DNA of 20,000 nucleotides, from assembly GCA_010015585.1 (NCBI GenBank), contig ML975176.1; one strand, written 5' to 3'. The position numbers and the translations under genes are program-made. The notes under the pieces were generated by a model. The model was not told the DNA's origin and ran no database searches. It saw only the letters and a program-made list of their open reading frames with translations. Numbering within the stretch: position 1 is the stretch's first letter; every line of letters starts with the position of its first letter. The DNA is from Eremomyces bilateralis CBS 781.70. Its lineage: Eukaryota. Below, in pieces: positions 568 through 19,625 of this stretch.

Positions 568-1828
568 ATGGGAAAGAAGAAGAGGAATCATCCCGATGTC
601 GAAGATGTCCTGTCACGACCTTGGTGCTACTATTGTGAGCGCGATTTCGATGACTTAAAGATCCTCATATCTCATCAGAAGGCTAAGCACTTCAAGTGCG
701 ATAGATGTAATCGTCGGTTGAATACCGCTGGAGGTACGTTGATCCCATGACTTTACGCGCATCGCTAACCTCTCAGGTTTGTCCGTTCATCTGAATCAAG
801 TCCACAAAGAGACCCTCAATGCCGTTGACAATGCCCTTCCCAATCGACAGGGCTTGGATGTGGAAATCTTTGGGATGGAAGGTATCCCGGAGGATGTCGT
901 CAACTCACACAAACAACGCGTCCTTCAACAATACTACGAAGCTCAAGCCGATCGTCAAGCACAAACCGGAAACCCAGCTCCTGGTGCAAATGCTCCAAAG
1001 AAACCGAAATTCGAATCTCCATCCGATTTGAAGAGGAGATTGGCCGAACACAAAGCTAAGAAAGCTGCCGAAGCCGCTGGAAGTAGTGGTGATGTAACAC
1101 CGTTACAGGGAGCTCAAAGTCCAGCCGCTGCTACTCAAAGTCCGGTTCCTTTCGTAAGTCGATCGCTCTAGATGTTGAGCAGATACTAACTCTTCCAGCA
1201 CCCGCCCTTCCCTTCACACCAAGTACCTCATATCCCTCCCCAAACCAGTCCTCCTCCCTATGGACAGTTTCCGCCTTACGGTCAGCAAGCTTTCCCTCCA
1301 TCTTGGGTTCCCGGAATGCCTCAAGTCCCTCCCATGCCCGGTGGATACTCACCAGGTCAATATCCATCCATCTCCCCCCCATTCCAAGGACATCCGCAAG
1401 TCCTTCGACAAAATCTCCCAAATGCCCCGGGACTTCCACAAAGACCCGCCTTTGGCGCTCCCCAGGTGAATTCATTTCAGTTTCAGCAAATGCATCAAGG
1501 CCATGCTCAACCATCTTCACCGGGCCCTAACCAGACCCAGGGAGTCAATGGTCACAACGCGGCCGCTTTCTCCGCGTCAGTTGATGAACTGATTGCTAGC
1601 ACCAAACAGGAAATGGACAAATCCAAACCAAGTGCAACGGAGAAATCAAAGAAAGACTTCCGTTTGGTTTATTCGGATAATGAGGTTAGTCCGGAGGAGA
1701 AGATGGCAACCCTTCCAAGGTACGCATTCGTTCCAAACAACAAACCAGAAACCGTCTTGGGGGATGTGGAGGGTAGTGTGACGGGTCCTGTGGTAGGTCC
1801 AGACGATGTCATGGACAAATCAGGTTGA
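568..1828 (+). CDS. ZNF207: BuGZ/ZNF207-like C2H2 zinc-finger protein; exons 568-733, 777-1153, 1199-1828
   Basis: MGKKKR...[51 protein letters not shown]...NALPNR...[10 protein letters not shown] is the ZNF207/BuGZ N-terminal signature. It is followed by a Pro/Gln-rich middle and C-terminal [20 protein letters not shown]. Introns 734-776 (GTACGT..GCTAAC..CAG) and 1154-1198 (GTAAGT..ACTAAC..CAG) join three ORF-track pieces in frame. Confidence 0.92.
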
Positions 1829-2249
1829 TCCGGTTGCTTCAGAGGCGATGGAAAGTGCTCACTTAGTACTCCCGACTCCCTACGACACGAGATCATAGGC
1901 CATCGGAGTTGCAGATTCATTATGGGATATGGTCAGTCAGTCCATCGGTGTTCATAGTTCTTGCGGGAACTGATTCTTCATTCAAGTTCTGGTCCGAAGG
2001 ATGGATGGAATACCGTTTGTAAGTCGATTGATACAAATTTTCAAGCCTTTTCATGATTTCCACATCTGTGTCGTTCCACCGGCATTTGCGCTCAGTAGTG
2101 GCATGATTTCCTCACCTTTCTATAAACACCATTGAGGATGCAGCATTGCATTGGTAATATTGTGATTGTGCCTCTAAAAGACCAGCCATTGTATGGCGTG
2201 GTGGAAGAATGGGAAAAATCGGTGTCAGAAACCTGATTTTGAAGGCATT

Positions 2250-3336
2250 CTATACCTCTCTCACTCCTTCGAGTTCCTCGAAAATGGTGTCTACCGCGCC
2301 CTCGGCTCCTTTCAACACCGTTTCCAGCGTTCGGATGTTGATGAAGATCGGACATTCCGAGATATTGGCCACCGCTGATTCGAACCATTCATTTGCGGTT
2401 GGAAATGCGTTCTTGGATATTAACGCAAGAGAATAGAACGTATTAGAGGCTGATCGGATTTAGCTCGGCATCCAACTTGTCAGATGAGTGATGATACATC
2501 GCCTCTCAAAACGCGTGCGGGAGATGAGGATCCCAGTCTGCGCGATGAATGCGACAAGGGCTTTGGTGAGTTTGGATGGATTGCCCTGGTAATTATTAGC
2601 GTTGAGTTCTTTGACCCGCTTTATGCAATCGTACCATGTCGATGATGCGTTCACGCCCTAGTGTACTGTCTTCGAGTCGATCCAGCGTCATTCTCGGGCT
2701 CATCCTCGTCCTCATCCTCGTCCTCACCCTTATCCGCCTCGCTGCCCTCGTCCCCCTGGTTTGTACGGCGCGTCCTCCAGATCCTCCGGCTCCTCTGGTT
2801 CGTTCAGTGCGTCCTCCAGGCCCCCCGGCTCGTCCGGTTCGTCCTTCGATTCGTTCTCCTCCAGGTCTTCTTCTGTCTCATCTTCATCCTCTTTGTCTAG
2901 CTCGTCGGCACCTCTAGCATTTTGCTTGTCCGGTTTGAGGGACCTCGAACTACCTTGAGGACAGCAGCTTTGTCGATGTTAAGGTCGGAAAAAACAAGGT
3001 CAAGTGCGATGCCAAGCACATCTTGAGTGGCTCGTTCGATTGATGGCCGCGTCTGGTTCGTGTTCCTGGCTCCCTAATGTTGTCTTGCGGCCGGGGTGAT
3101 TGCATTTTGTAGCTCAGCATGCGAAGCGCTTGGTTGACTTGCTGCAATTGGCAAGCGACTGTCATGTGGGATAGGAAGAGTGGTGATGTGATCCCTAGAT
3201 TTTCTACCCGATTCTTCTCTGGAAGTCGAGGACGTCTTGGGACAACATCGTAGGTGTCCGTTAGCCCTACATATTCTTTGATATGGCGAATGTTGGCCGC
3301 GGTGGCGTTTAAACCTTTGTTTTTGCCGCGTGCCAT
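2250..3336 (-). pseudogene. Decayed gene of unknown family with an acidic (Asp/Glu) low-complexity segment
   Basis: ATG 3336 opens MARGKNKGLNA... The acidic tract DELDKEDEDETEEDLEENESKDEPDEPGGLEDALNEPEEPEDLEDAP continues as DEGSEADKGEDEDEDEDEPEND only after a frameshift near the C5 run at 2752-2756. A later segment reads ISKNAFPTANEWFESAVANISECPIFINIRTLETVLKGAEGAVDTIFEELEGVREV*. No family recognised. Confidence 0.35.
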
Positions 3337-3401
3337 TGCTGATGCTTGGTGGAGTGGTGATTGGATCTGGGGTTTTCTGGAGAAATCGACGCTACGGATT
3401 G

Positions 3402-3650
3402 CAAGAAGCCCGTCCCGATGACAAGGTTGATGGGGGATGGATTGAAAGAAAACAAGAAGTTGTTCTAAGGACTAAACTTATGTCGGCAGCAACGTCGAGA
3501 TGATTGATGAGATGAATCCCAATGGGATAACAAGAAGCCTGTCCTAGGGACAGGGCTTAGAAGATGATGGGGCAACAAGGAACCCGTCCGATGGACTGGA
3601 CTTACAATACGAAGGGAAAACAAGAAGACCGTTCTATGAACAAGGACTTG
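3402..3650 (+). repeat. Five degenerate ~30-bp direct repeats (consensus AACAAGAAGcc.GTyCta.GGACa.GaCTTA)
   Basis: CAAG(A/G)A(G/A) cores at 3402, 3453, 3531, 3576 and 3621, each followed by GT[CT]C...AC..TT. Spacings are 51, 78, 45 and 45. Confidence 0.6.
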
Positions 3651-5564
3651 ACTATGGATATCCGTGCAGATATGATGGCGGTGATTGGAAAGTGATGGTG
3701 GAAAATGTAAGCTGAAACCTGGCTATCCATGTGAGTGAAACCTAACAAAAAACCCCACAGCTCAGTTCTCAAAATTCTGCCTATTCGGACTTAATATCAC
3801 TTCACTTTGATTTATCCACAGATTCCACTGGACACCCTATGTATCTGCCCGACCAGGCGGGACGGATCGTTCCGGGATCCAGGAAACCGGAATCCTCAAG
3901 TTCTACTGGTATGGATAAATTGCTCGACTAGACGATGGGTCGACAGGCACGGTGAGTTCCAGCATGATTTCCCGAAGGAATCGATGGGTGGTACGTCTAT
4001 GAACAAGTGTATTGCGTCACCAAATTCATCATCAACTCCTCTCATCATCCCTTCTGTTTGCATGTCCCGTTTGCATCTTCGGTATACAAATATTCTCCAA
4101 GTCCCCCGTCTTTCAATATTCTACTGCAGCTCTGAATTGGAGTTCTGAATTGTCCTTGACTTTGCAATGCTCCTTGAATCGCGAATATACTCTGCATAGC
4201 CATTTGCTTGTTCAATGTATCTAGTAGAACCTTCGTATATTGTCGCATTGGGTTGTCGAGTCATTATCTCATCGAGCAGACTGGCATCCCGATTTCCTGC
4301 AGCTGATCTTGAAACCTCACTTTCTAACAACATACTGTCATGACGTGACAATCCTTTCTGTCTCATTACCCCATCCACCGGAGTTATATTTACGATATAC
4401 GATTAAATGTCTTGTCTTATCTTCATCCACCGGTTCTATAACTCCGCGAATCATAACCCCAACCCGTGGACCCGTTACTCAGTCGACTCGATCCATTGTT
4501 AAGCTTAGACATAGTGTGGGATTCTTCTCCCGTCCGTTGATTCGTAAGCTCAGCCATAGTGCGGGTTTCTCACTCTTCGGGAAAGCGACTTCTCCCTTCC
4601 CGATGTCAAAGCGGGGTTGTATCAAACTTCAGCCAGATATGACGAGACAAAACTGACGCAAGACCGCCCAGACAGGAGGATTTCCGAGCTGGAAACGAAA
4701 GTGAAGGTGAATCTGGCCGACAAGGTCAGATATTGGGCAGAGGCTGGACCAGCAGGGGAAACCTGCGATTAGTGTTGGGCACCGGGGATAGCAATCCCAC
4801 CGATTATGAAAGGATCAGGCGGTGCGCATTCAGCAACTTGAGATAGTTAATCAAAAAGTCTCGATGCTGGGGCCAGATTGGCTGGCGCGGCCGGCAGAGC
4901 TTGCGCGACGAGATTTCAAGAGGCGAATATCGAGCATGGAAAGGTCAAGGGCAATTATGAGTTAGAAGATGCTACCCATCAACTACAGATGGAGCTAACT
5001 GATCAATTGTTAACGGTTCAGGCGGTACAGATTCAGTCGCGGGTTCAATTATGCACGAGAATGGTGGAGGGCAGTAATTGATCATATCTCCGGAACTTCG
5101 GTGATCAGCACACACAGTCGGTATGCTCTTCGTATTCCGAGTCAATTCATCGCTGTGTAGTATCTTTTCGTTTCTGTTACTTCTGGTCAGTCGGTTTGTT
5201 GGGGTGCTCTTCTCGATAGAGAGCTTGTATTTCGATTCTTTATCCGAGTTAAGAGGCCGATGCCGTGCAGTTCCTCGAGAGTACTATCCTCAGGCAGCTC
5301 CACCAGTCGACATTAGAATCAAGAAGGTTTTTGTCGGAATGGTGGTACGATGCTGCCTGGTGATCTCTGGCGGGCCGAAATGGGATAAAGGGCATGAGCG
5401 TACTGCCGTGTGTATGTATCTTCGATCCGATACTGCGCATTGTTAACATTATATTAGGCCAGTCATGTGGGACTCATAATCGGCCCTAATAGTTTAGGAG
5501 TGATATCCCGACGAGGCACCATGTGCTGGGGCTCCTAGATCATTCGTGCGAATCGACTGATTAG

Positions 5565-5749
5565 TGTCATGGGCCCAAACCACGAAGGATTTGGTAAGCT
5601 GGTAACGCTATTGAATTGCTAAAGAGAAAAGGAAAAGATCTCTCTCACGATCTACTATGTACATCTGTGAGCAAACGGTCTACCTATCCTTCCTGCCTTA
5701 GGCCGCAAGGCCACAATACACAGACTGGGCGAAGCCCAAGACTGTCACA
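5565..5749. mobile_element. Solo LTR (185 bp) with 5-bp target-site duplication ATTAG
   Basis: ATTAG(5560-5564)-TGTCATGGG...GACTGTCACA-ATTAG(5750-5754). It has TG...CA ends, imperfect TGTCA/TGTGA terminal inverted repeats and a perfect TSD. Confidence 0.75.
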
Positions 5750-6775
5750 ATTAGAGGCGGGTTAGATCAACCACAATATAGTTGCATCAAAAGGGGGAAG
5801 GCCATCAAAGCAGGTCGCATAGATATATGTACAGGGTTCTTTGTTCTTTGCATTGATTCTCACTTCATCTTAGTGTCTCCAATGGTTTCATATTCCGTAC
5901 CACTGCTTTCACACGAATCTTTGCTACCACTCCGGCCAAACTGCTTGAGAAGTCTTCCTGCGAAGAGCGAACATCACAGTAATGGTTGTTCAGCAACCAT
6001 GGCCTGAAATTAACAGCTTCCGTTTTCGAAAGTCTGCTAATTCCACTCGTATAACTATCACAAAGTTTCCATGCCTTGCTAGTTGCCAATTTGCTGGTTT
6101 ACATTGTGACTGGTGAATGGAGGACGTAGCTTTTAACGGTCGGCAAGCCAACAGTAGTTGGTTATTTTCATTAGCTTGGAAAACACATTGATTATGTGTA
6201 TTCACTGAAATTCTGTGTTGAAAATTGTCCATCGTGAGTATGGTGAATTGCGCTGAAGTAAAACCTCCTAGTTTCCACCTGTCCGTAGACTTTACTTCTT
6301 CATTCTTTCAATATTTTTCCACTTCTTTAAGAAGAAAATTCTACAGAAGCCCGCGAAGTCCAACTGTACGCGTCCACGTCGCCGCGGGTGAAACATTGAT
6401 GGAGAAGAGTTCTCTATTGATGGCTAAGTGCAGTGGCGATGAGAGAGACGCACGCGTTGCGCGTGCAGGTCGCAGGCCTTGAGCGTGGTATCGCCATACC
6501 ACCAATACCAGCACGACTGTGTCTACTGACTCCGCTTAGACACGGTGTCCTTTCATTAAGGGAGGCCTCTTGAGGGATATAAAGGGATACGAAAACCATC
6601 CGATAGGGGTCTATCTAGCTCGCAGCTGGATCCGGAAGCCTGACTTATCATTAGGTAGATGAGGACGCGTCCTAGGCCTCTAACAGGACATCCTCAGGCT
6701 CGCCTACTCTGGGGTTACGCGTGAGCAACGAGCTGCGTGTAGCGAGGGTTTAGAATAATCCTAATTCTAAAGAAC

Positions 6776-7027: not shown

Positions 7028-8065
7028 CTATAACTTTTGCTTCTTCGGTGCTGGTCTCAGAATGCACTGTTGGGTCATATTCGCCACTAACTTCGTCCCT
7101 GTCTTATCAAAGAGCCTCGACTCGGTGTACGTCCTCGCATGGTCGGCAACTATCGTTCGCCATTCTCTTAGGTGCCACTTACTGAGGTCGATTTCAGTGA
7201 CATATAATCTTAGGGCGAAGTCAAGCGTCGAGCACGGGCCGGCTTCATCGAACCACATGGCGTTATGCGCCAACGGAATGAACGACAGCGCCCCGTCCAT
7301 CATGAGCGAAAGTCCGCACACGTTCTCGGCTTGGGTTTGAGTCGTTCCAACATGTCGGAAATAGTCGGCAGATGTCTTCTCTGTAACATCCAGATCATCC
7401 TGGCTGGTCTTCAACCACTTCGCCGCCCCAAAGGTCTGGCCCATGACTCCTTCTGGCGTGGTGCGCTGTTCGAATTGAAGTTTCTTGACCAGCCCAAATT
7501 CCTTCTTCAACCCTTCTGACACTCCCGGTGGGAGTAATCCCTTCTCTTCCATCTCTAGAGCGGTTTGATCGTGCGGCTTGCATATCTCGACTGGAGAGTA
7601 TTGCCTGAATGGCTTGACAGAATACTGGAGCAGCGCCTCCGGTTCCGGGGCTTGGAAATCCGCAATCATGATCATCACCTTCCGCTCAGTCTTCTCCAGG
7701 TTTTCCTTCACGGCCTTCGTGAGGGTTTCGTAGGGAACAGCGTTCGTGCTTTGGCTCAAGTCTATGACGCGAGTTGCAAATGATCTCGTGTCGCGCACGC
7801 GTCGTACTCGCGCAATGAACGGCCGGTCAACCAACGAAGGGCCCAAGAAGCTTCCAGTTGCAGAATAGAGGGCGTAATTTGGGCCTACGGTTTGGAAGGC
7901 CGCGTGAAGCGAGGCGGAAATGGTACAGCCGCCGTACGCGATGCTCTTCGAGTTGGCCATTTGATCTGGAGGAATCACACTGATGAACTGATCATCTCCA
8001 ATCGACCGGAGAGCTAACTGGGCGCTCAGCGATTTTGGTGCCAGCTCAACAGCGTGGGCAGCCAT
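7028..8065 (-). CDS. Acyl-CoA thioesterase II (TesB/ACOT8-type double hot-dog fold), 345 aa, intronless
   Basis: Motifs AYGGC, YSATGSFLGP, VRRVRDTRSFATRVI, MDGALSFIPL, STLDFALR, WHLRE...ARTYTESRLFD...VANMTQQCILR are typical of fungal TesB-family thioesterases. The ORF is intact. Confidence 0.9.
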   Translation of the reverse strand: MAAHAVELAPKSLSAQLALRSIGDDQFISVIPPDQMANSKSIAYGGCTISASLHAAFQTVGPNYALYSATGSFLGPSLVDRPFIARVRRVRDTRSFATRVIDLSQSTNAVPYETLTKAVKENLEKTERKVMIMIADFQAPEPEALLQYSVKPFRQYSPVEICKPHDQTALEMEEKGLLPPGVSEGLKKEFGLVKKLQFEQRTTPEGVMGQTFGAAKWLKTSQDDLDVTEKTSADYFRHVGTTQTQAENVCGLSLMMDGALSFIPLAHNAMWFDEAGPCSTLDFALRLYVTEIDLSKWHLREWRTIVADHARTYTESRLFDKTGTKLVANMTQQCILRPAPKKQKL

Positions 8066-8662
8066 CTTAACGAGGGATTCGAGAGTGATGAGATAAGGAT
8101 AACGCGAAACTAGTCCAAAACTACCGGATCGATGAAAAATCTCCCCGTGACTTCAGAAATATATGTAAAGGGATGTATCACTTGTATGGGAAATGGGAAA
8201 TATATTAAATTTACGGACGTATTCCGTCACTAACTAACTTCCGGTTTGCTGAGACGGCGAAGTTCGGACTTTGAACGTTGCTGGAAGGGGTTACAGCAAT
8301 TATCTAATGAGAAGCCACTAATGGGCAGAGTAACAAGTTGGAGATAGGCGGCAAGGGGCCCATTCTAATAATATTTTGGTTAATCTCTCAGTAACTTGAA
8401 CCTTCTTGATTACCATTCACACTTCATCTTTCTCACCGCATCGGCTAATGCAATGGTGTTAGCCGGCTATGAGAGATGAATCTCATTCTACGGCAGCTAG
8501 CCATCTTTTCATGTAGAAGCCAGGCTTCTGCGATCATCATGGAGTTACAAGGCCTAACCCGTAGAGTTGCACAGCATCCACTGTGCGCCCAGGCCTTCTT
8601 GACCGGGGGGTGGTCGGATGGTCTGTGTAGGCCGATGGCCGGCCTGGCGAATAGGTGAGCAT

Positions 8663-9132: not shown

Positions 9133-9687
9133 ACGCGTCGTAGATAGCTCTTCTTCTTTAGCTTTGCAATAAATGAAAGTGGTTCTCGTAACTTCTGCGA
9201 TCAAACCGTCTCAACGGTTAGATATATCAGCGGTTTAGAATTCAATCGGGAAATTTCCTCGATCGTTTTGCTTAATTAACAGTTGGTTAGCGGTTGTGTC
9301 GCATCACGCGTGGGTGATGATTAAGCACGTTTGCTTCTTTAGCTCAGTTGCTGTAGAGTCACAACGCAAGTTGGTCTTGACGATTCCCATTGTCTCTCCA
9401 AAAAGGAGATCTAGCTAGCAAAACAGTTGAAGATAACTGGGACATATCATAAGGGCAATTTTGGTGCGTCATGGCCTGGGTTATTAGGCAAAAATGCCAA
9501 GACCTTAGTTCTTCACACATAACACCCATCGCGGAAATGGTACTCTTATTGCCTGTAACTAACAACAATAACAGTAGCAGTAGCAGAGAAAGTATGGATA
9601 TCCATGCGTACGCGCATATTTTTATGTTTAACCATCTTGGTTGAGATCTTCGGTAGGGACGGTAAGCTGTTAGATATATCGACTTAT

Positions 9688-9715
9688 AAGTAACAAGTGA
9701 CAAGTGACAAGTGAC
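9688..9715 (+). repeat. 7-bp tandem repeat (AAGTGAC)x4, first copy AAGTAAC
   Basis: AAGTAAC AAGTGAC AAGTGAC AAGTGAC, read directly. It lies about 400 bp downstream of the Crypton stop codon. Confidence 0.8.
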
Positions 9716-9904
9716 CAAAGTCAACTTGTTGTATTGAAATCCCGACTACCCAAGGTACAGCATAATAGGGTGAGCCTTCTGAGATAGAGATTCGTACGTA
9801 GGTGGAATTTCTCTTTCTAAAATAGGAATTCGTACGGAAGGGGTGATTCATTTGACTCAGTAAGGTGTAGTTATAAGTCTAAGCTTCTGTCCTATGGATA
9901 CTCG

Positions 9905-10025
9905 ATTCCTCCTTTTCCCTCTCCTCCTCCTCCCCTTTCTCCTTCTCCTCTTCCTCTTCCTTCTTCTCTTCCTCTTCCTTCTCTTCCTGATTCTCTTGAT
10001 CCTCCTCTTCGTTTTACTTCCTCCT
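9905..10025 (+). repeat. CT-rich low-complexity tract (GAG/GAA-rich on -) downstream of the Crypton ORF
   Basis: Almost pure pyrimidine run on +. On - it would read EEDQENQEEKEEEEKKEEEEEKEKGEEEREKEE. Confidence 0.7.
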
Positions 10026-10106
10026 GCTTGATTCCAAATTAATTTATTATCGTACGAGCACCTCCTCTATCAATCTTAGAGCTTATCCAAGTAGATTACT
10101 CTTTTT

Positions 10107-12414
10107 TTAAGCAATCTCCTTGTAGAGATGATGTAAACTCCACTTTGATCTCGTACGCACCTCTTCTAACCGTGTTACCGCAAGGAGAGCTGGTATTCTC
10201 TTCGCCTCAGATACTGTACGGATATAATCGATAATAGCTTTTCTACGACTATACCACGTCTTCTCTGAATCTTTCTGTCGCCATAAGGCACCATAACTTA
10301 ACTCTAACGCTTGTACGGAAGGATTAGGTGCAAATCCTTCAAACCACTCTCGCCAGAGTTGATCAACGGTTTCTACCGTACGAGACATAGTATAGATTGG
10401 CTCTCCATTCTCTTTAATCGGCCGATCAGGTAGCGGTGGTACAGTCGAAGGGCTGGCGGCCAATAGCGGTAGAGCTGAAGAGGTGGTAGGAGTAGAGCGT
10501 GCGATAGAAACCGGAGTTTCTATTACCGGCGTTGAAGGTATTCCCGTGCCGGGAGCGGCCGTCCGAACCGCTGGCAATGGATCCTGGAGTAAGGATAAGT
10601 GTCCTACATTAAGGTAAAGAGGTGTTCTGCCACTGAATACATCATCTAGAACCGTACGCTGGCGGCACTGTTCCGTACGAAGAGAGTCGAACATCTCTTG
10701 TAATCTTTGTCCAATATTGGTCTCCATCACACTCAACCGATCTGCAATTATCGGAACAGCTTATCGTACGAGTACATCTTGCGGTTGAACTACTTCAGCA
10801 GCAAGAGTTTGCCTCATCCTCCGCATAAAGTCAAGGTACTCCGGATCAGAGAAGATCGGATGCTGGAAGAGAGGGTGGTGTGGAAACTCATCGCGGATTA
10901 GTACGAAGTCCTGAAGAAGCACCGTACGAAGATAATCAAGTAGCCGGAGGAAGGCCTTTCCAGCAAGGTCATTCCGATCTCCCTCACCCTGTTCTTCTAA
11001 CTGGTGATCCTCACGCACGGTGCTCTCATTCTGTTGGAACCGCTCGATCCACTCGTCCACCCATGGCCAGATCTTCCGTACGAGAGTCTCAGGAGGCAGG
11101 ACCTGTGCTCGCGGAATGAAGTAGTCTCCTCGGCCGCTGGGAGAGAAGCCAGCGGCTGCTCGTACGAACTTTCGGGGAATGTGGCTGAGGTATGCATTCG
11201 ACATGGAATCCGAATTCCATCGTCCAGCTCTCTGAATCTGAGATTCGCTGACCCCAAGTATCTCCGCATGCTGAGCACCTTGCTTTCGTCCGGCATGTGT
11301 CTTCTTGTATGAAGAGATCTCATAGCGGTCAAAGATCTCATTGACCTACTGCAGCTGAGTAGCGTACGAGAGAGGATGGGTATTCTGGCCACCTTTCAAA
11401 ATCTTCGTCCGATACTAATCTGAGCGCTGCTTGAAGGTCGGCGGCGGTTCTTTCTCAAGGTCCCAGCGGAAGAAGAGGTAGAACGCCAGTTGAGAGACTA
11501 AACATTTCCAATGCTCCTTGTGCCGTACGGTAACACCATACTCTAGCTTCCCAAAGGCGTTTGTCTTCCCGTTGTCTATAATCATACAGAGAACACGGCA
11601 ATCTGTTGCTCCTTCATTCTGCAGCGGGACGGCGAAGAGATCAGGCAGTTCTCCGTTTCGTACAGTCTCCCCACGCAGAAGCATGTTATGCGAGAAGAGG
11701 AGATCGACTGCCGTACGAAGCCATCCGCTGTAGACCTGCGACGTCGGTCTCTCTCGCTTTCTTTCCTTGCCTGCCCGGACAGACGTTTCAGACGCCTCGG
11801 GCTGCCAGCAGCCTCGTATACATCGTACGAACTCTTCTTCTGAATAGCCGTCGAGCAGTGTGCCAGTACCGCGATCAACGTACTCTTCTCGCTTGCGGGC
11901 CACCTCGGCCATCTTACGCTTTTGCAGCAGCTGCTTCAACGCATACGACCGGGCGGGGACATTTTGGTTCTGAAGAAGGCTGTACTGCACTTTCCACAGC
12001 TCCATAATTGCAGAGACGTACGTTTCAATCGATCGAGCTCCGAGCGTTTGTACGATCGGATTGCCATCTGCGCCCGTACGAGGCTGCTTCAGCCTCCGGC
12101 CTGGCTGGGTCGGCTTTGCTATACGACCGATAACCTCTTCTTCTAGAAAGAGGATAATCTTTGGACTGGTAACGAGGATACCGTCGCTGCACTGGTTCTT
12201 CTGGCACCACGCCTAACCGAATTAGCCTCCTCCTTCGTTAGATTCCCCGTACGAAAGCGCTTCTCACAATAAACTCTTGCTGTCGTGGCTCATATATTCT
12301 CCTTGTATTCGTTACTCGGCCATCTGGTGTTGCAAGGGCTCGTTGTGTCGCTGCATTTAAACGGTTATTCAGCTCGATCGTATGCTCTATAGAGAGCTGC
12401 GAGCTAGGAGGCAT
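10107..12414 (-). pseudogene. Crypton tyrosine recombinase (NDC10-II-like YR domain + C-terminal GCR1_C DNA-binding domain); exons 12414-12268 and 12212-10107; 750 aa; three in-frame RIP stops
   Basis: Intron 12267-12213 (GTGAG..GCTAAT..TAG) gives NTRRIYEPRQQEFI|AWCQKNQCSDGILVTSPKIILFLEEEV. YR catalytic motifs are LLRGE (R), NGKTN (K), THAGR (HxxR), GRW (W) and MSNAYL (Y). The GCR1_C motif is YTMSRTVETVDQLWREWFEG...WRQKDSEKTWYSRRKAII. Stops at 11415-11417 (D*Y), 11346-11348 (Q*V) and 10761-10763 (R*AVP) are all in frame, with no frameshift. Confidence 0.9.
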
Positions 12415-12962
12415 TTCTTCACGGTCTGATGGCAGTACTTAGTAGGAACAACTCGAGTAAATTATCTCTATATTATTATCGAGACAGGCTCGTTCTATCG
12501 AGAGAGGAGGGGAGGGGAGGGGAGAGGGGAAAATGCCTGAGCTAAGCACCACCAAGTCACAGCTATACCGTATAGAGCGATAGTTTCCACGGACGCTTTA
12601 CTGAAAAAGGCTTAACGCTGCGCGATTTCTTCGCCAGTAACCCAGCCACCACGAAGACTTTCAGATAAGTGCATATCAACTAGGTGGCTCGGTGGTTGGT
12701 TGCGCAAAGGCTGGGTTATCATGCGCCTTGGCACGCCATAACCCGTGGCGCTGACCCTTGATAACGGTTGGTTAACGGTTTAGTAGGCAAAACGTCGGCT
12801 AAGATTCGGCTTAGCTTCGGGGGTTCCTATTAATCCGGCTCCTACCATAACTCTACGATGCTCTCCTAGACCTAATCATACGGGTAGACACGTTATAAAT
12901 GAGATGAGCTTCTTATATAAGACTCAGATGACCTATAACCACTCTTAAACTCGATATTTGAG

Positions 12963-13914
12963 ATGGATAACACTGCTGCTGGCATAGACCCGGCGCTGTC
13001 CGGCTCCCATGTTGGAGCGGAAGATGATGAACTAGGTCGTCCAGTATGCTCCGCACACTGCCTTTCTTATATAAATTATATAGGAAGTCCAGTCTCTGAC
13101 GCATTAAGTAACCCGAGGATTTCCAATCCTACCTCCGTAACCCGAAGAAACGGGTACGAGCGAAGCGCCATCACCACGCCGAAGCCGTCAGTGAGGACAA
13201 TGCTCGCGTTGCGAAGCTGTCCAGATCAACGAGGTGGAACCATTTCTTTTTCCACAGCTGTTTTGAGGAAAACAAGTTGATCCAGAATGTGTACGGATCT
13301 GTGACGGCGGATGACGTCGAGTGGCGAGAAGCGCATGACTTTATTCATGCCTGGTCCAAAGGCTTCAAGTTTGAGACTATCAGGAACATGAAGGCTAGCT
13401 ATACGTCTTACTAAGTTGTTCTTTTGCTAATTTCGCGTAGAGTTACGTTAAACGGCTCATCGAAGAGGATACAGTGGCTGCATCAATTGCAGTAGATAAA
13501 TTTACCAAATTTATCGAGTCGGAGTCGGTTTTTTCGTCCGTTAACTTCTTTAACGTTTTCGGCTACATGCATGAATACCTAGATTACGACGGGTCTTCCA
13601 CTTCTGGGAAGTGGTACTGCAGGAGCAAGTTTCCCCTATTCCCCCTAGTTCTCTAGTTCTCCGCCTATTTCGCATATTTCTCCTATTTCTCCTATTTCTC
13701 TTGCTTTTCCTACTAGTTCTCTTAGTTATCCTAGCTTTGAAGCTCGCTAACTGTAATAGGCGTGTTTGCGAATCTTGCGGGTGAGGTGCGCCGGTGGATT
13801 GAGGATGGCAAAGATGAGAATGCCAGGCAGCGGCTGCTGCAATTTTACGACGAGATGGTTGCTTATGAAGCATATACGCCATATAAGCGTAAAGACCTCT
13901 TTAAAGAGGCATTT
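12963..13914 (+). pseudogene. Multi-exon orphan gene, divergent from the Crypton; exons 12963-13043, 13109-13393, 13441-13624, 13760->gap; one in-frame stop
   Basis: Introns 13044-13108 (GTATGC..CTGAC..AAG), 13394-13440 (GCTAGC..GCTAAT..TAG) and 13625-13759 (GCAAGT..GCTAAC..TAG) give one frame: MDNTAAG...GRP*PEDFQSYLRNPKKRVRAKR...WNHFFFHSCFEENKLIQNVYG...WREAHDFIHAWSKGFKFETIRNMKSYVKRL...GKWYCRSVFANLAGEVRRW... TAA 13109-13111 fits CAA>TAA. Family not recognised. Confidence 0.6.
13631..13735 (+). repeat. Degenerate 9-bp minisatellite (CCTATTTCT/CCTAGTTCT) inside intron 3 of the orphan gene
   Basis: cctattccc cctagttct ctagttct..cctatttcg catatttct cctatttct cctatttct.. Confidence 0.6.
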
Positions 13915-14474
13915 NNNNNNNNNNNNNNNNNNNNNNNNNNNNNNNNNNNNNNNNNNNNNNNNNNNNNNNNNNNNNNNNNNNNNNNNNNNNNNNNNNNNNN
14001 NNNNNNNNNNNNNNNNNNNNNNNNNNNNNNNNNNNNNNNNNNNNNNNNNNNNNNNNNNNNNNNNNNNNNNNNNNNNNNNNNNNNNNNNNNNNNNNNNNNN
14101 NNNNNNNNNNNNNNNNNNNNNNNNNNNNNNNNNNNNNNNNNNNNNNNNNNNNNNNNNNNNNNNNNNNNNNNNNNNNNNNNNNNNNNNNNNNNNNNNNNNN
14201 NNNNNNNNNNNNNNNNNNNNNNNNNNNNNNNNNNNNNNNNNNNNNNNNNNNNNNNNNNNNNNNNNNNNNNNNNNNNNNNNNNNNNNNNNNNNNNNNNNNN
14301 NNNNNNNNNNNNNNNNNNNNNNNNNNNNNNNNNNNNNNNNNNNNNNNNNNNNNNNNNNNNNNNNNNNNNNNNNNNNNNNNNNNNNNNNNNNNNNNNNNNN
14401 NNNNNNNNNNNNNNNNNNNNNNNNNNNNNNNNNNNNNNNNNNNNNNNNNNNNNNNNNNNNNNNNNNNNNNNNNN
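13915..14474. other. Assembly gap (N run)
   Basis: Run of 560 N. Confidence 0.99.
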
Positions 14475-14688
14475 TCTATTGTGTAAATTTCGCGAAGTCC
14501 ACGCGTTTGTGCGTATCGCACCTTCCATCGCCACTCACACTTTCCGTTCTTACCTAGGCACCGTACAATATCGAAATTCAACGTCAATCACCTCACCCCA
14601 TCAGATCTAATGGTCGCTTAATACCTCTACTCTTTACTATATATATCGGATTTTCCTCTATTCCAGCCTCTTATCGATTACGGCCATT

Positions 14689-16601
14689 ATGGTGAAATCA
14701 TACCGACAATCCGGGCGAATCACTGCTATTCGCCGTCACATAGAAGCTTAGTACGAGGCTATAACGCGGGCGTAGCAAGAGGCTCAGTAGCTCGCAGGAC
14801 AACTCGTGGAGGAAGTTGACGATGATACTAAACTATTAGATACTATTAGTAGTATAGAGCCATCGTCTAAGCGTCCAATGCTTAATGATAGCGACGAGGA
14901 TGATATAGGAATGTTATTCGAAGTAGGTCCTATTACTTTTTACCTATTTTATGTTAATAGAGTACAAACTCCTTATAGGATGCTACTGAAGAAGACCTTA
15001 GGTTTGATAGCTTCGAAGCCATACTCGGGGGTACGCAGGCCATGCTAGCAAGCGAGCTTAATAAGACGATGCCTACCCTGGATAACCGTCGTGAACTTGC
15101 TGAATACCAGTTCCCGGCAGAGGATATCGAGGATTTAACGCCTGTTGCTAACGATATCGAATCCGATGAAGAGACCGCTACTATTAGTAGTCAGACGGTG
15201 GCTAACACGGAGACAAGTCAAGTTACCCAAGAAGCTCCTCACCCCTTCGCCGCCAACTCCAAGTATTTCATTCCTTCAGATACCTCTCTACCTCTACTAC
15301 GCAGGATTGCCACCCAGCCAATGACTAACTTCGCCCTTGCAATGGGCACATGGGTACAGTAGTACGGTGTCCCTCGGTCCCAGTATAAGGCGCTCGTTAA
15401 GGTTCTGAACCTTACTAGCAATAAAGAGATTAGTAAGCTCCCTAAAAGGGTTGATACTATAAAGAAACAAGTGAACGAATAACTGCCCCTCCTCGAAATC
15501 CGCTCTAAACCAATTACCCTTAATGCTAACAAGCTCCCGAGTGGCCGCCGTGGGGAGGCTGAGGCCGGTTTACGAACGCAAGCAGAGAACCTCTACTTCT
15601 TTAACCCGTTCGAGCTCTTTAGGACAATCTTGTACACCGAGCTACGCTTAAATATGTTCTTTGGGATGGCTAGGTTCGTCGACTCGCCTAAAGAGCTCTG
15701 GGAATCTATTGCCTGGGCGTCGTCAATCCGTTGCTCTTCTGGTCAGTACGCCTACTATCCAAATACGACCGAGCCAGTTTTTCCTTCGGATCTCGTCCGT
15801 TTCAAATGCAACGATACACAGTGTCTCTGTCAGACGATGACGCAAAAGCCGCATCTTGGCCAAATCGTGGCTTTTAGAAGGGATTTCCGCATATATCGCG
15901 AGCATAGTAGCCCAGAGGGTTCGATTATCCTTAAGGTCCAGCGGTTTCAGCTAATAAACTAGTTCCTCTCTCGCCTAACGTACCAAAATCTTACTCTCGA
16001 CCCGCCTCCTTACTCCCGCGAATTCATTATACTAGATGATACTATCGACGTTGTACCCGAAGAATTGATTGAGCGCCTAACAGACATTACTGTCTATTTT
16101 GACTATGCCTTCAGGAGCTCTGTATAACTCCCTAGCGATCGATCAACAGACAGCCTCTCTCTAAACGAGCATATTGTGCGTCGGGTCTATAACCAGAATA
16201 CAGGTATCCGGCCTATCTTTAAGACCTACCCGATCCGCGGCGAACTTGAGCTTAAGGTCTATGGGCGAGAATATTTCGTTAGCAATTTCGCAAAGCGGAA
16301 TAGGCCTAGGGGGACGGATATCTTGTCTATACCTATCCTTGGGTATCTTGATGGCTTCGGGCTCTTCCGTAACATGCGCCGTACTATTATAGGCTTCTAT
16401 CTTCTCCTGGCCTGCCTTGTCCAAGCCGAGCGGAATATTCCGGCCAATGTATTTCCACTGACTTTGGGCCCTCATAGTAGAAGCTTTAACGACGTCGTCG
16501 ATGCCCTAGAGTTGATGCAAAGACTAGATAGGGGCGTTGATATGGATATCAACGGTAAGACGTGCTTCGTATACATTCCCTTCCTAGCGTTCATCGGTGA
16601 T
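14689..16601 (+). pseudogene. CACTA/EnSpm (CMC)-superfamily, Plavaka-like DDE transposase; RIP-mutated and truncated by the Mutator insertion; intron 14923-14978
   Basis: One frame through TAG/TAA stops: ...FALAMGTWVQ*YGVPRSQYKAL...LYFFNPFELF...ELWESIAWASSIRCSSGQYAYY...VFPSDLV...PIRGELELKVYGR...YLDGFGLFRNMRRTIIGFY...ER..ANVFPLTLGPH...LDRGV...FLAFIGD. The DGF...N....GP...L..G...GD layout is that of Tnp2/Plavaka transposase cores. Coding sequence stops abruptly after the second Asp. Confidence 0.65.
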
Positions 16602-17167: not shown

Positions 17168-19625
17168 ATGGAGGATATCGCTCCCCCCCAAGATTGCCTT
17201 TACGCATCCTATAAAGAAGCCTATAATGCTCTCAAGGGCCATAGAATGTAGCATAGCTACGGCTTCCTACTTAACCGGAGTAGACCTCACAATTCTAATG
17301 TTAAGACACGATATTACTACTACTGTGATCGATCCGGAAACTATTAGTCAAGAGCAAAGAATCTGAGTACAAGCATACGCTTAATAGGGTGTCCTTTTAG
17401 GCTTAGTATATTTAAGAACAAAAGCGACGACCAGTAGAAGCTGGAGGTTCTATACAAGCATTACAACCATCCCCGGTCACTTAACCCTAGTACGCATAAT
17501 GTCTATCGCGAGCGTATATTAGCATAGAAAGACATAATTAAATCAATGACGCATGCCGGGGTACGGCCGATGCAGATAATGGCTGCTATTCAAAAGGAGG
17601 ATCCAGACACCCTAGTATCTGCTACCGATATTCGCGGCGAGAGGAAGGCAATTAGAGAGAAGCACTTAAATGGGAGGAGTCCGATTGAGACATTATTAGA
17701 TGACCTGTCTACGCCGGAATGGGTCTTTACTGTTAAGAAGGATGCGGATAATCACGTACAAGGTCTCTTCTTTGCCCACCAGAAGCAGATTGAGCTACTG
17801 CTTGCAAATCCCGATATCCTGTTGAGGGACTGTACGTACCGAACCAATAAGTACAAACTCCTACTGTTGCACATACTCGGCTGTACCAATCTATAGATAT
17901 TCTTCTCTGTAGGGTTCTGCTTCCTCCGCAGCGAGAAAGAAGCAGATTACTATTGGGCAATCTCAAACTTCCTCCTTAATACAGGGACACCGCAGCCACG
18001 TGTATTCATTAGCGATCAGGAGGATGCGGTAAAACTAGCAGCTCGCACTCTGTTTCTAGATATCCCACAACTCCTGTGCATATGGCATATTAATAAGAAT
18101 ATGCAGAAAAAGGCTCAAAAGACCTAGCGAGACGCTGATGGCGTAACAAAAGAGGAGAAGCAGAGAATCGCTGAGCACCGGGCTCAATTTATGAAACGTT
18201 GGAGTCAGGTATGCTCCCCACCAATGGCCTAAGAGGCGTTACCGGAAGGCTTCCGGGAATGCCTCTTATAAGTTTTTCACAGAACTGACTGGAGCAGCTT
18301 ATCTATGCAAAGAGTCTACTTACATTTAAGCTAAAGTGGGACGAGTTACTCAAAGACTATGCCGACCAGCGAGAACTTTGCCAATACTTACGTGATAATC
18401 AATGGCATACACGTACCGAGTGGGCAGCTGCTTGGACGTCTCAGCATCGACACTATAATACAGTTACAACCTCTCCTGTTGAAGGAATGCATAGGGTTTT
18501 GAAGGACCACCTTATGCCTTCAAGAGGCGACTTGCTACGTGTTGTTAGAAGGATTGAGCAGATGGTCAAGAGTCAATACAACAAGTACAGGAAACAGATT
18601 ACTTCTTCTAAACACAGCATTAAATTTGAGCACAGACTGGAGTCAATGCCATTCCTACCTCCTAGTATTTATGACATCCTTACGCCAGCGGCAATTGAAC
18701 GCATTAGACAACAGGATCTGATGCGCCAGAAGGAGCAGAGACAACGTCGTAGGAGGCGTCCTTGTTCTGGCCTCTATGAGAAGATAAACGGTCTTCCATG
18801 TCATCATACGCTACGAGATGTGATAAATTCTGGATCGACGTTACGACCAAATCACCTTTACGACGATTATTGGCGCTATTAACGTGAGCAAGGACGGTCT
18901 ATAAGCCTCTCTCCAAGGCCATATTAATCTATCCTAGAGCCGCTTCCGGCTTAAACAAGAGGTACGCCGAGGAAGAACGAGGCATTAACTCGTCGAGATC
19001 TATCAGCTTTTGAACGACGTGTACCGCCTTCTCTACTACAACCTTAAGGTCAATTACTTACTGAGGTCTTACGGTATACAAACACCTCTGTCGCTGTGTC
19101 AATTCCTACATCTGCACTACCTACGAATGCTATAACTCGTCGAGATCCTTCGGGCTTTGAACGACGTGTGCTACCTTCTATCCCTCAATTTCAGCCTCCT
19201 CCTCAACCCTAGGGTCAAACACTTGCTGAGGTCTTGCGACACACAAACATAGCTGTTACCATATCAGTTCCTATATCTGCACCAGCTACGAATCCTATAA
19301 CTACTCCTCCACCTACTCCATCTCATTTGTCTTCACCTGTCTCTATTACTGCGTCTATTACTACGGCTTAATCCCCTCTATAGCCTGCTTAGCAACCTCC
19401 GTCGTTAGAAGAGTTCTTTACTAACATCGAGCGTCGACGACTTCAGCCTGTTCTATATAACTATAGTGACTTTAGCACAGTGATAAATCATTTAGTAGAG
19501 ATAGGGCAGGAAAACGACCCTATAGAACTAGTTGAAGCACGGGATATGGCTCTCGCGACAAGAGGGACGTTTGCTTCCTGCACTCCAACAATGGCATAGA
19601 ATTATTACTTTGGAGATATGGAAGC
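17168..19625 (+). pseudogene. MULE transposase (FAR1/WRKY-GCM1-like N-terminus, DDE core, SWIM-like finger); intron 18209-18297; many RIP stops
   Basis: N-terminal YYCDRSG...GCPF...HYNHP. Core LFFAH...LLRDCTYRTNKY...FISDQE...LCIWHINKN...TTSPVEGMHRVLK. Zinc finger CSG...GLPCHH. Stops at 17249-17251, 17894-17896 and 18880-18882, among others, are TAG/TAA in Gln/Trp-like positions. The intron GTATGC..CTGAC..CAG keeps the frame. Confidence 0.9.
18986..19297 (+). repeat. In-frame tandem duplication (147 bp + 165 bp) in the MULE C-terminus
   Basis: TAACTCGTCGAGATC...TTTGAACGACGTGT...CTGAGGTCTT...CTACGAAT starts at 18986 and again at 19133. Protein: TRRD.S.FERRV.PS...GQ.L.EVLR.TN..V twice. Confidence 0.85.

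Follow-up and report, generated by a model that had tools for sequence, protein, structure and literature searches.

CryptonF elements, as delineated by Kojima and Jurka (2011; PMC3212892), encode a tyrosine recombinase combined with a C-terminal GCR1_C domain, measure about 3-4.5 kb, have no terminal inverted repeats (TIRs) and occur in low copy number. In the portions of that work and of its Additional file 1 drawn on here, terminal direct repeats of 4-6 bp are described, those of 14 elements being A/T-rich 6-mers of which none is CGTACG, and no internal motif array is reported. In this last respect they differ from the element studied here, which lies in a stretch of 20,000 nucleotides of contig ML975176.1 from Eremomyces bilateralis CBS 781.70 (the window, to which all coordinates refer) and carries an array of 19 copies of the palindrome CGTACG. 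In its domains, length, apparent lack of TIRs, low copy number and fungal-type gene structure it resembles the CryptonF elements as they are characterized in those portions. Its assignment to the Cryptons, proposed in a first-pass annotation of the sequence, is borne out, and specified as CryptonF-type, by the Pfam domains NDC10_II and GCR1_C.

A short motif that is dense in one transposon family and rare elsewhere is known from the VANDAL21 transposons of Arabidopsis, where the element-encoded anti-silencing protein VANC21 recognizes YAGTATTAY motifs and its effect spreads over the whole element (PMC5735166). As far as the sections of that study used here describe them, the target is defined by motif density and not by any single site, and the motifs are non-palindromic, share one orientation and are confined to non-coding tandem repeats, coding regions being free of them. 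The Crypton motif, on the other hand, is a palindrome that occurs singly, is evenly dispersed and runs through coding sequence with accompanying amino-acid changes. Enrichment in its own family and rarity elsewhere are thus found in both cases, but non-coding tandem repeats in one orientation are not a feature of the Crypton array, where 14 of the 19 sites are coding.

The subterminal repeats of Ac/Ds (AAACGG) and En/Spm likewise comprise many short motifs bound by the element's own protein, but they cluster within a few hundred bases by the ends, whereas in the Crypton the ends are free and the body is covered. Other over-represented words are parS in coding genes, DNA uptake sequences, Chi/KOPS and the papillomavirus E2 sites ACCGN4CGGT. 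Like the Crypton motif they are short, often palindromic and selected also within coding sequence, each with one dedicated reader, but they belong to prokaryotic chromosomes or viral episomes. To our knowledge no such word array has been described for a eukaryotic DNA transposon, and we know of no DNA target ever assigned to a Crypton recombinase-GCR1_C protein. Searches of the open full-text literature, a scope that excludes subscription-only papers and with them the original 2003 description of Crypton, gave no match for Crypton together with CGTACG. In combination with fungal transposable elements the hexamer appeared in full text only as the BsiWI site used for optical mapping, and 8-10-mer forms of the motif returned only primers and unrelated sequences among the matches listed. 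No published description of the array was thus found in the literature searched.

The CGTACG array in the window

The element, its gene and the array have the following layout, where X1, X2 and X3 denote sequencing runs, X3 being only guessed to be RNA.

9297 to 12761, minus strand: CryptonF-type element, a 3465-bp insertion; contigs of X1 and X3 pass from 9296 to 12762 with nothing but GT in between
12267 to 12414, minus strand: exon 1, start codon ATG at 12414-12412, within an open reading frame (ORF) at 12238-12438; a spliced X3 contig covers 12267-12411
12212 to 12266, minus strand: 55-nt intron (GT..AG) containing the motif at 12248; the X3 contig joins 12211 to 12267 and the frame is continuous across the joint
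10107 to 12211, minus strand: exon 2, natural stop at 10107-10109; one frame with three premature stops, aligned with homologues
10836 to 11807, minus strand: tyrosine-recombinase-like domain, Pfam NDC10_II, matched in two halves (E = 1.1e-18 and 1.8e-39)
10155 to 10394, minus strand: GCR1_C DNA-binding domain (Pfam E = 1.6e-23, profile positions 1-80 of 80; predicted local distance difference test, pLDDT, above 88)
9607 to 12253, no strand assigned: array of 19 CGTACG cores, found by exact search, consensus CTT-CGTACG-AAG
9607, 9793, 9831, 10051, 10152, 10377, 10653, 10674, 10765 and 10923, no strand assigned: first exact core positions
11077, 11161, 11363, 11524, 11712, 11824, 12017, 12075 and 12248, no strand assigned: remaining exact core positions

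The 19 hexamers reported in the first-pass annotation are all exact, and the entire window holds 20, the remaining 17 kb contributing the single copy at 7933. Dinucleotide-preserving shuffles of the window yielded a mean of 2.81 and a maximum of 9 copies, and none of 200 reached the observed 20. The other sequence features given at the outset were recovered as well, namely six one-transition variants and a bias in the flanks, with a pyrimidine on the 5' side in 16 of 19 sites, A on the 3' side in 12 of 19, and CCGTACGA seven times as opposed to its reverse complement once. Note that the isolated hexamer at 7933 sits in an ORF at 7028-8152 on the minus strand with acyl-CoA thioesterase N- and C-terminal domains.

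Relative to the gene, 14 sites are coding, one is intronic and four (9607, 9793, 9831 and 10051) lie in the 3' non-coding flank, all of them 3' of the stop codon at 10107-10109, so that 5 of 19 are non-coding. The intron at 12212-12266 with the motif at 12248 is real, as it is skipped by the spliced X3 contig. The count of coding sites includes 11363, since the segment 11346-11414 continues the frame of the ORFs on either side and its two TAG codons fall on conserved tryptophans; this motif is therefore coding and not intronic. Exon 2 is interrupted by premature stops at 11415-11417 (TAG), 11346-11348 (TAG) and 10761-10763 (TAA), which occupy conserved Trp, Trp and Gln positions in an alignment of homologues, and is thereby divided into three successive stop-to-stop ORFs on the minus strand, 12212-11415, 11345-10764 and 10760-10107, which in turn match the N-terminal half of NDC10_II, its C-terminal half and GCR1_C. 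Alignment with 14 homologues places all three in the same single frame, and the GCR1_C domain follows C-terminal to the recombinase domain in this frame, after the premature TAA.

Could the hexamer simply reflect the codons or dipeptides of a protein rich in Arg, Thr and Val? All three codon phases are used, with 7 sites encoding RT, 5 encoding VR and 2 of the form x-Y-x, and the early claim that protein or codon bias fails to explain the sites withstood synonymous-codon shuffles. These permute codons within the element and hence keep its own skewed codon usage. For the three ORFs, 13 observed sites compare with a mean of 2.26 and a maximum of 8 (0 of 5000 shuffles), and for the segments of the window defined by tblastn, 14 sites with a mean of 2.46 (0 of 1000). 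Shuffling the codon order of the window ORFs gave a mean of 0.85, and again none of 5000 reached the observed number. The dipeptides RT and VR, with 10 occurrences each against 3.5 and 4.1 expected, are themselves in about 2.5-3-fold excess, and it is the motif that has moulded the protein rather than the protein the motif.

The hexamer forms the centre of a longer palindrome of roughly 12 bp, CTT-CGTACG-AAG. As had been pointed out, it contains neither CpA nor TpG, the same being true of TTCGTACGAA. In 100 sites pooled from four elements (the window element and the three related lineages described below) and read on the sense strand, position -3 is C in 50, -2 is T in 47 and -1 is T in 75, while on the other side +1 is A in 56 (G in 33), +2 is A in 39 and +3 is A in 36 (G in 33). 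The sites are also placed far more evenly than by chance. In the window the mean spacing is 147 bases with a coefficient of variation (CV) of 0.46, as opposed to 0.93 for random placement, and none of 5000 placements was as even; across all four elements the mean spacing per element is 121-152 bases and the CV 0.43-0.58 versus 0.93-0.96, with at most 0.0004 of placements as even. Neighbouring sites are mostly 57-232 bases apart, and few distances are below 50 or above 250. No strict period or helical phasing was found (Rayleigh R of 0.05 at 10.5 bp and 0.21 at 147 bp). The sites are dispersed singly and do not rest on any tandem repeat. The array spans gene, intron and 3' flank and spares roughly 300-500 bases at each end; in the window, exact CGTACG is missing from the 310 bases next to the left terminus and from the 508 next to the right one. 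The array of DNA motifs is thus real, extended and evenly spaced, and stronger than first described.

Motif-rich and motif-poor relatives

For comparison we used 56 metagenome loci that were chosen by protein similarity alone, in a scan of contigs against a profile built from full-length homologues. Of the 56, 4 exceed 3 sites per kb.

L002: 21 CGTACG in 3.0 kb; same element as L004, 99.3% identical
L004: 21 CGTACG in 2.8 kb; same element as L002
L008: 26 CGTACG in 7.6 kb, 25 of them inside an element of roughly 4 kb
L022: 35 CGTACG in 4.8 kb, comprising two elements

In L022, positions 1-2019 are the 3' 2 kb of an L008-type element (L022a) and 2020-4822 a second Crypton whose protein is 47% identical; the two are arranged head to tail, the second beginning directly after the 3' end of the first, TTACATATA. 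Including the window there are consequently four motif-rich lineages, with 40-50% protein identity to each other, a level at which synonymous sites are expected to be saturated. The three metagenome lineages carry 6-8 sites per kb, and synonymous shuffles gave 16 observed versus 1.19 for L002, 13 versus 1.62 for L008 and 24 versus 4.29 for L022, each with 0 of 1000 reaching the observed count. CGTACG takes first place among the 64 palindromic hexamers in 10 of the 34 loci that reach 2.3 kb in length (z-score above 5 in 8 of them), and about eight further loci are mildly enriched, with 4-7 sites versus 0.3-1.2 expected. The enrichment was absent from an outgroup clade of 8 loci, and no Crypton relatives were found in viral contigs. 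The idea that each Crypton family might carry a k-mer of its own did not hold for this class of words, as no other palindromic hexamer was comparably enriched among the 64 in the 34 related loci. Note that in motif-poor loci some non-palindromic words do recur, CCCGCTAA 9 times in L023 and TGTTTAA 11 times in L003.

The enrichment stops at the element. The flanks of the L008 element hold one site in 3.6 kb, a Tc1/mariner copy included. Within the L008-type element the motifs run on through a second ORF, which the window element does not possess. This ORF is found on the opposite strand and encodes a DUF3716 domain (E = 7.8e-17), at 5139-5762 (minus) in L008 and at 1005-1628 (minus) in L022.

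Many site positions are common to the rich elements, for instance those at reference residues 114, 226, 256, 323, 425, 595 and 639. At the aligned sites motif-poor relatives mostly read CATGCG, CGCCGG, CGCCCG or CGCATC, so that Met, Ala, Gly or Ile is encoded in place of the Val, Arg or Thr of the rich elements. Amino-acid replacements have been accepted in order to create sites, and the protein has been bent to the motif. Near-identical copies lose sites by CpG transitions, CGTACG becoming CGTACA or CATACA, and retention in the long term therefore needs selection. For the second copy of the window element 40 of 213 differences were listed; in 11841-12123, where the list seems complete, motif 12017 is retained and 12075 reads CGTACA. 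In L002, 42 of 128 CpGs lie inside motifs, and the observed/expected ratio of CpG elsewhere is 0.5. To judge from these comparisons, recurrence of the motif in three other Crypton lineages, which come from unrelated samples, argues strongly that the motif itself is under selection. The history of the array could be either that of one ancient array repeatedly lost or that of several build-ups.

That the sites are instead a functionless by-product of repeat-induced point mutation (RIP), of another mutational bias or of the codon and dipeptide bias considered above is scarcely credible. The window copy does carry damage of the RIP type: its stops derive from TGG to TAG and CAA to TAA, its indices are borderline RIP-like (TpA/ApT 1.0, RIP index 1.01) and its bases are skewed to T/A with respect to other genomic copies (in X1, T>C 47 and A>G 29 versus C>T 17 and G>A 24). 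Moreover, CGC-ACG to CGT-ACG and GTG-CGN to GTA-CGN would be synonymous RIP changes, and reference residue 28 reads CGCACG in 6 of 29 relatives. However, L002, L008 and L022 have non-RIP indices (TpA/ApT 0.68-0.87 and (CpA+TpG)/(ApC+GpT) 1.07-1.44, with 0.74 and 1.44 in L002) and nevertheless 21-35 motifs. In relatives few RIP precursors occur (0-8 per locus), and most aligned hexamers of the relatives, among them the four given above, cannot reach CGTACG by C-to-T or G-to-A. Nor does such a bias account for the persistence of the enrichment under synonymous shuffles that keep the element's own codon usage, for the 5 of 19 window sites that are non-coding, or for the even spacing, which is unexpected from mutation. 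Un-RIPed copies with CGCACG or CGTGCG at the sites, an outcome that the first-pass annotation had named as refuting, were looked for in the relatives and not seen. An origin by RIP or mutational bias is thus largely refuted by the indices of the rich relatives and by their non-precursor hexamers.

Putative readers of the array

We tentatively favour the view, as a possibility rather than a likelihood, that the array consists of selected, putative sites for a DNA-binding dimer, which would probably be formed by the element's own protein. A symmetric site would call for a dimer that binds double-stranded DNA, and the likeliest binder would be the recombinase-GCR1_C protein, which is favoured because the array is found only in Cryptons and not in neighbouring transposons or host genes. 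By coating the whole element such a protein could mark it as self. As to the purpose, our first guess would be that chromatin is kept open or silencing counteracted, in the manner of the VANC proteins for VANDAL transposons; recombinase loading on an element that has no TIRs and retention of an excised circle are second guesses. In the C-terminal region a 42-residue helix is predicted upstream of the confidently folded GCR1_C domain, an arrangement that may be weakly compatible with a dimer. The fold of the GCR1_C region gave no Foldseek match at E 0.001 or better, and the best VIA-align Z was 4.7, so that neither comparison was informative.

The array supplies a concrete candidate target, CTTCGTACGAAG, for the protein of Cryptons, elements without TIRs. 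If this reading is correct, it would be the first case known to us in which a eukaryotic DNA transposon superimposes a recognition code on the sequence of its own gene. The finding would then also be relevant to the way in which Ndc10 and Gcr1, yeast proteins derived from Cryptons, gained their sequence-specific roles. In practice, motif density is an easy marker by which members of this Crypton clade can be recognized in fungal genomes and metagenomes.

Several observations weigh against this reading. The known specificities of GCR1_C proteins are not palindromic, as in the CT box CTTCC of Gcr1. Although 17 protein columns separate rich from poor elements, several of them are the motif-encoded Val/Arg and only two lie in GCR1_C; beyond motif-encoded residues, no GCR1_C residue pattern tracks motif density. 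The motif-rich elements are not monophyletic but form a long-branched grade at the base of a well-supported clade that comprises 18 motif-poor elements; 5 changes are required on the tree, at least two of which are forced by well-supported branches, and none of the rich elements is as near to L002 as are the motif-poor L010 and L005 (57% identity). Comparison of near-identical copies shows no visible protection of the motif columns, which take 3 of 18 substitutions versus 0.85 expected in L002/L004 and 0 of 37 versus 1.65 in L008/L022a, numbers too small to decide the matter. Finally, every motif-rich copy examined contains 1-3 premature in-frame stops (1550-1552 in L002, 3463-3465 in L008, 3466-3468 in L022 and the three in the window), and none is shown to be active. 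Apart from the TAA of the window, which occupies a conserved Gln position, these stops stand at conserved Trp throughout; the codon there is TAG in the window and TGA in both L008 and L022, which fits damage by G-to-A and C-to-T changes rather than a variant genetic code.

The lack of monophyly would also fit independent gains via a shared host factor, and convergent recruitment accounts for it equally as well as the element's own protein. The sites would then serve a host dimeric transcription or chromatin factor, recruited independently by several Crypton lineages in similar hosts. Besides the long branches on which the rich elements sit, this is suggested by their G+C content of 0.48-0.51, as compared to 0.53-0.65 in most poor relatives, which could reflect a shared host group, and by the two motif-rich Cryptons that adjoin on contig L022. 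We nevertheless regard it as doubtful. The motif is absent from the L008 Tc1/mariner copy, from the host repeat of the window and from its 16-19 kb region, and a gene body that is filled while the promoter side is avoided would be unusual for transcription-factor sites. In addition, mild enrichment is found in the G+C-rich relatives L005, L010 and L016, and the motif consequently follows the Crypton clade and not one host type.

The same distribution along the gene raises the question whether the motif acts in the transcript, as UCGUACG, either bound by an RNA-binding protein or engaged in RNA-RNA pairing. The sites start about 160 nt after the ATG and extend through intron and coding sequence into some 500 nt of 3' flank, the promoter side is without sites, and on the sense strand T at -1 (75 of 100) exceeds A at +1 (56 of 100). 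A role in RNA is highly improbable all the same, as the consensus is a palindrome of the kind expected for double-stranded DNA bound by a dimer, the sites of the L008-type element continue through the DUF3716 ORF on the opposite strand, and the asymmetry of the flanks is explicable by codon position.

The early description of the array as a self-identity code stands insofar as it denotes a selected feature of the DNA, as evidenced by the shuffles and the recurrence in relatives, but not insofar as the hexamer was proposed to be the recombination core or target site. The window junctions read TTGTGT and TTGATA and the empty site TTGGTT. In the L008-type element the 3' end, placed at the point of divergence between two copies, reads TTACATATA. 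None of these is CGTACG, and the hexamer was accordingly rejected as the attachment or terminal site of the element.

The palindromes might still be secondary substrates of the recombinase, used for internal crossover between copies or for deletion, duplication or inversion within a copy. A 6-bp core with central TA and inverted arms would suit such a function, and the terminal repeats of CryptonF elements, as far as the part of the source used here lists them, are likewise 6-mers mostly with TA, i.e. TTGRTA, TAACTA and CAGTAT (PMC3212892). In L008 a 265-bp internal duplication (4558-5029) that is absent from the 97%-identical L022a copy starts exactly at TCGTACGAAG, a single case. On balance we consider this decidedly unlikely, given that neither the window junctions nor the L008-type 3' end is CGTACG, that no joint in the read data falls at a motif, and that 19-35 active sites with a symmetric core would scramble the element, whereas the frames are collinear with those of homologues. 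Conservation extends only about 3 bases beyond the core in either direction, and the recombinase-binding arms of loxP or FRT are far longer.

Returning to binding by the element's own protein, a more far-reaching form of this reading, which we hold to be unlikely, is that the Crypton clade writes, along the entire body of the element, a 12-bp palindromic self word that is read by its own Ndc10/Gcr1-type protein. The word would be set at a roughly nucleosome-scale spacing of 120-150 bases, with the protein sequence of the element altered to fit. The array would coat the element or its excised circle, which might thereby be kept open, tethered or segregated. This would represent a free-living version of a type of sequence-specific DNA marking later domesticated by budding yeast in Ndc10, at the point centromere, and in Gcr1.

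The element, its copies and its surroundings

The insertion is bordered by direct repeats, 19 nt long, of a host repeat, and two tracts of skewed composition form an inverted pair within the element.

9277 to 9295, plus strand: host-repeat 19-mer in the left flank, TAACAGTTGGTTAGCGGTT
12762 to 12780, plus strand: host-repeat 19-mer in the right flank, TAACGGTTGGTTAACGGTT, 89% identical to the left copy
9900 to 10020, plus strand: CT-rich tract in the 3' flank of the gene
12497 to 12534, plus strand: GA-rich tract upstream of the start codon (CT-rich on the sense strand), seen in the sequence

The insertion site is a tandem array of 11-bp GTTGGTTAACG-like units (9277-9296 and 12762-12790), and this host repeat belongs to a family of about 5 or more copies. 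The contigs from X1 and X3 that join 9296 to 12762 represent the empty site, from which the element is absent. A second version of the element, about 95% identical, is present in runs X1 and X2, and the spliced X3 contig derives from a copy of about 95% identity. In the joining runs X1 and X3 the body of the element has approximately 2-3 times the depth of a long single-copy contig. With several copies and an empty site the element counts as mobile. A search for terminal inverted repeats at 9297 and 12761 was negative. The two junction hexamers share only TTG with each other and resemble the TTGRTA of CryptonF-2_CGlo, as given in the portion of its description used here, a weak match in a mutated copy.

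The copy in the window is a pseudogene that has undergone mild mutation. Residues that do not vary among 9 homologues, and that we take to be the catalytic residues of the recombinase, are all present in it, i.e. the Arg of MLLRGE, the His and Arg of THAGR, the Trp of GRWN and the Tyr of AYL. Its nearest protein relative, P0012, is 88% identical over 34% of the query.

In L008 a subterminal inverted repeat of about 19 nt is seen at approximately 2231-2249 and 6080-6098 (GAGTTATTGCCAAGCCCCC and GGGGGCTTGGCAATAACTG), and a related subterminal sequence occurs at the start of the second L022 element. These repeats are candidate end-recognition sites, distinct from the CGTACG array.

At the left end of the window element, the stretch 9141-9438 reaches 20-130 times the single-copy depth in X1 and X2, and many contigs diverge at 9188, 9213 and 9438. 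Its part 9297-9438 falls within the 3465-bp insertion. The stretch may be a terminal piece common to short non-autonomous derivatives, or a separate small repeat; no tRNA or Rfam family was matched in the window, this stretch included.

Two further regions of the window resemble relics of repeats. At 17528-17896 on the plus strand a weak match, below the Pfam cut-off, to the RNaseH-like domain of ZSWIM1-3 may mark the remnant of a MULE-type transposase; it contains no CGTACG. The block at 13500-15000, with a G+C content of about 0.2 beside DNA of normal composition, is full of long ORFs on both strands that are spurious and has the look of a repeat relic heavily mutated by RIP.

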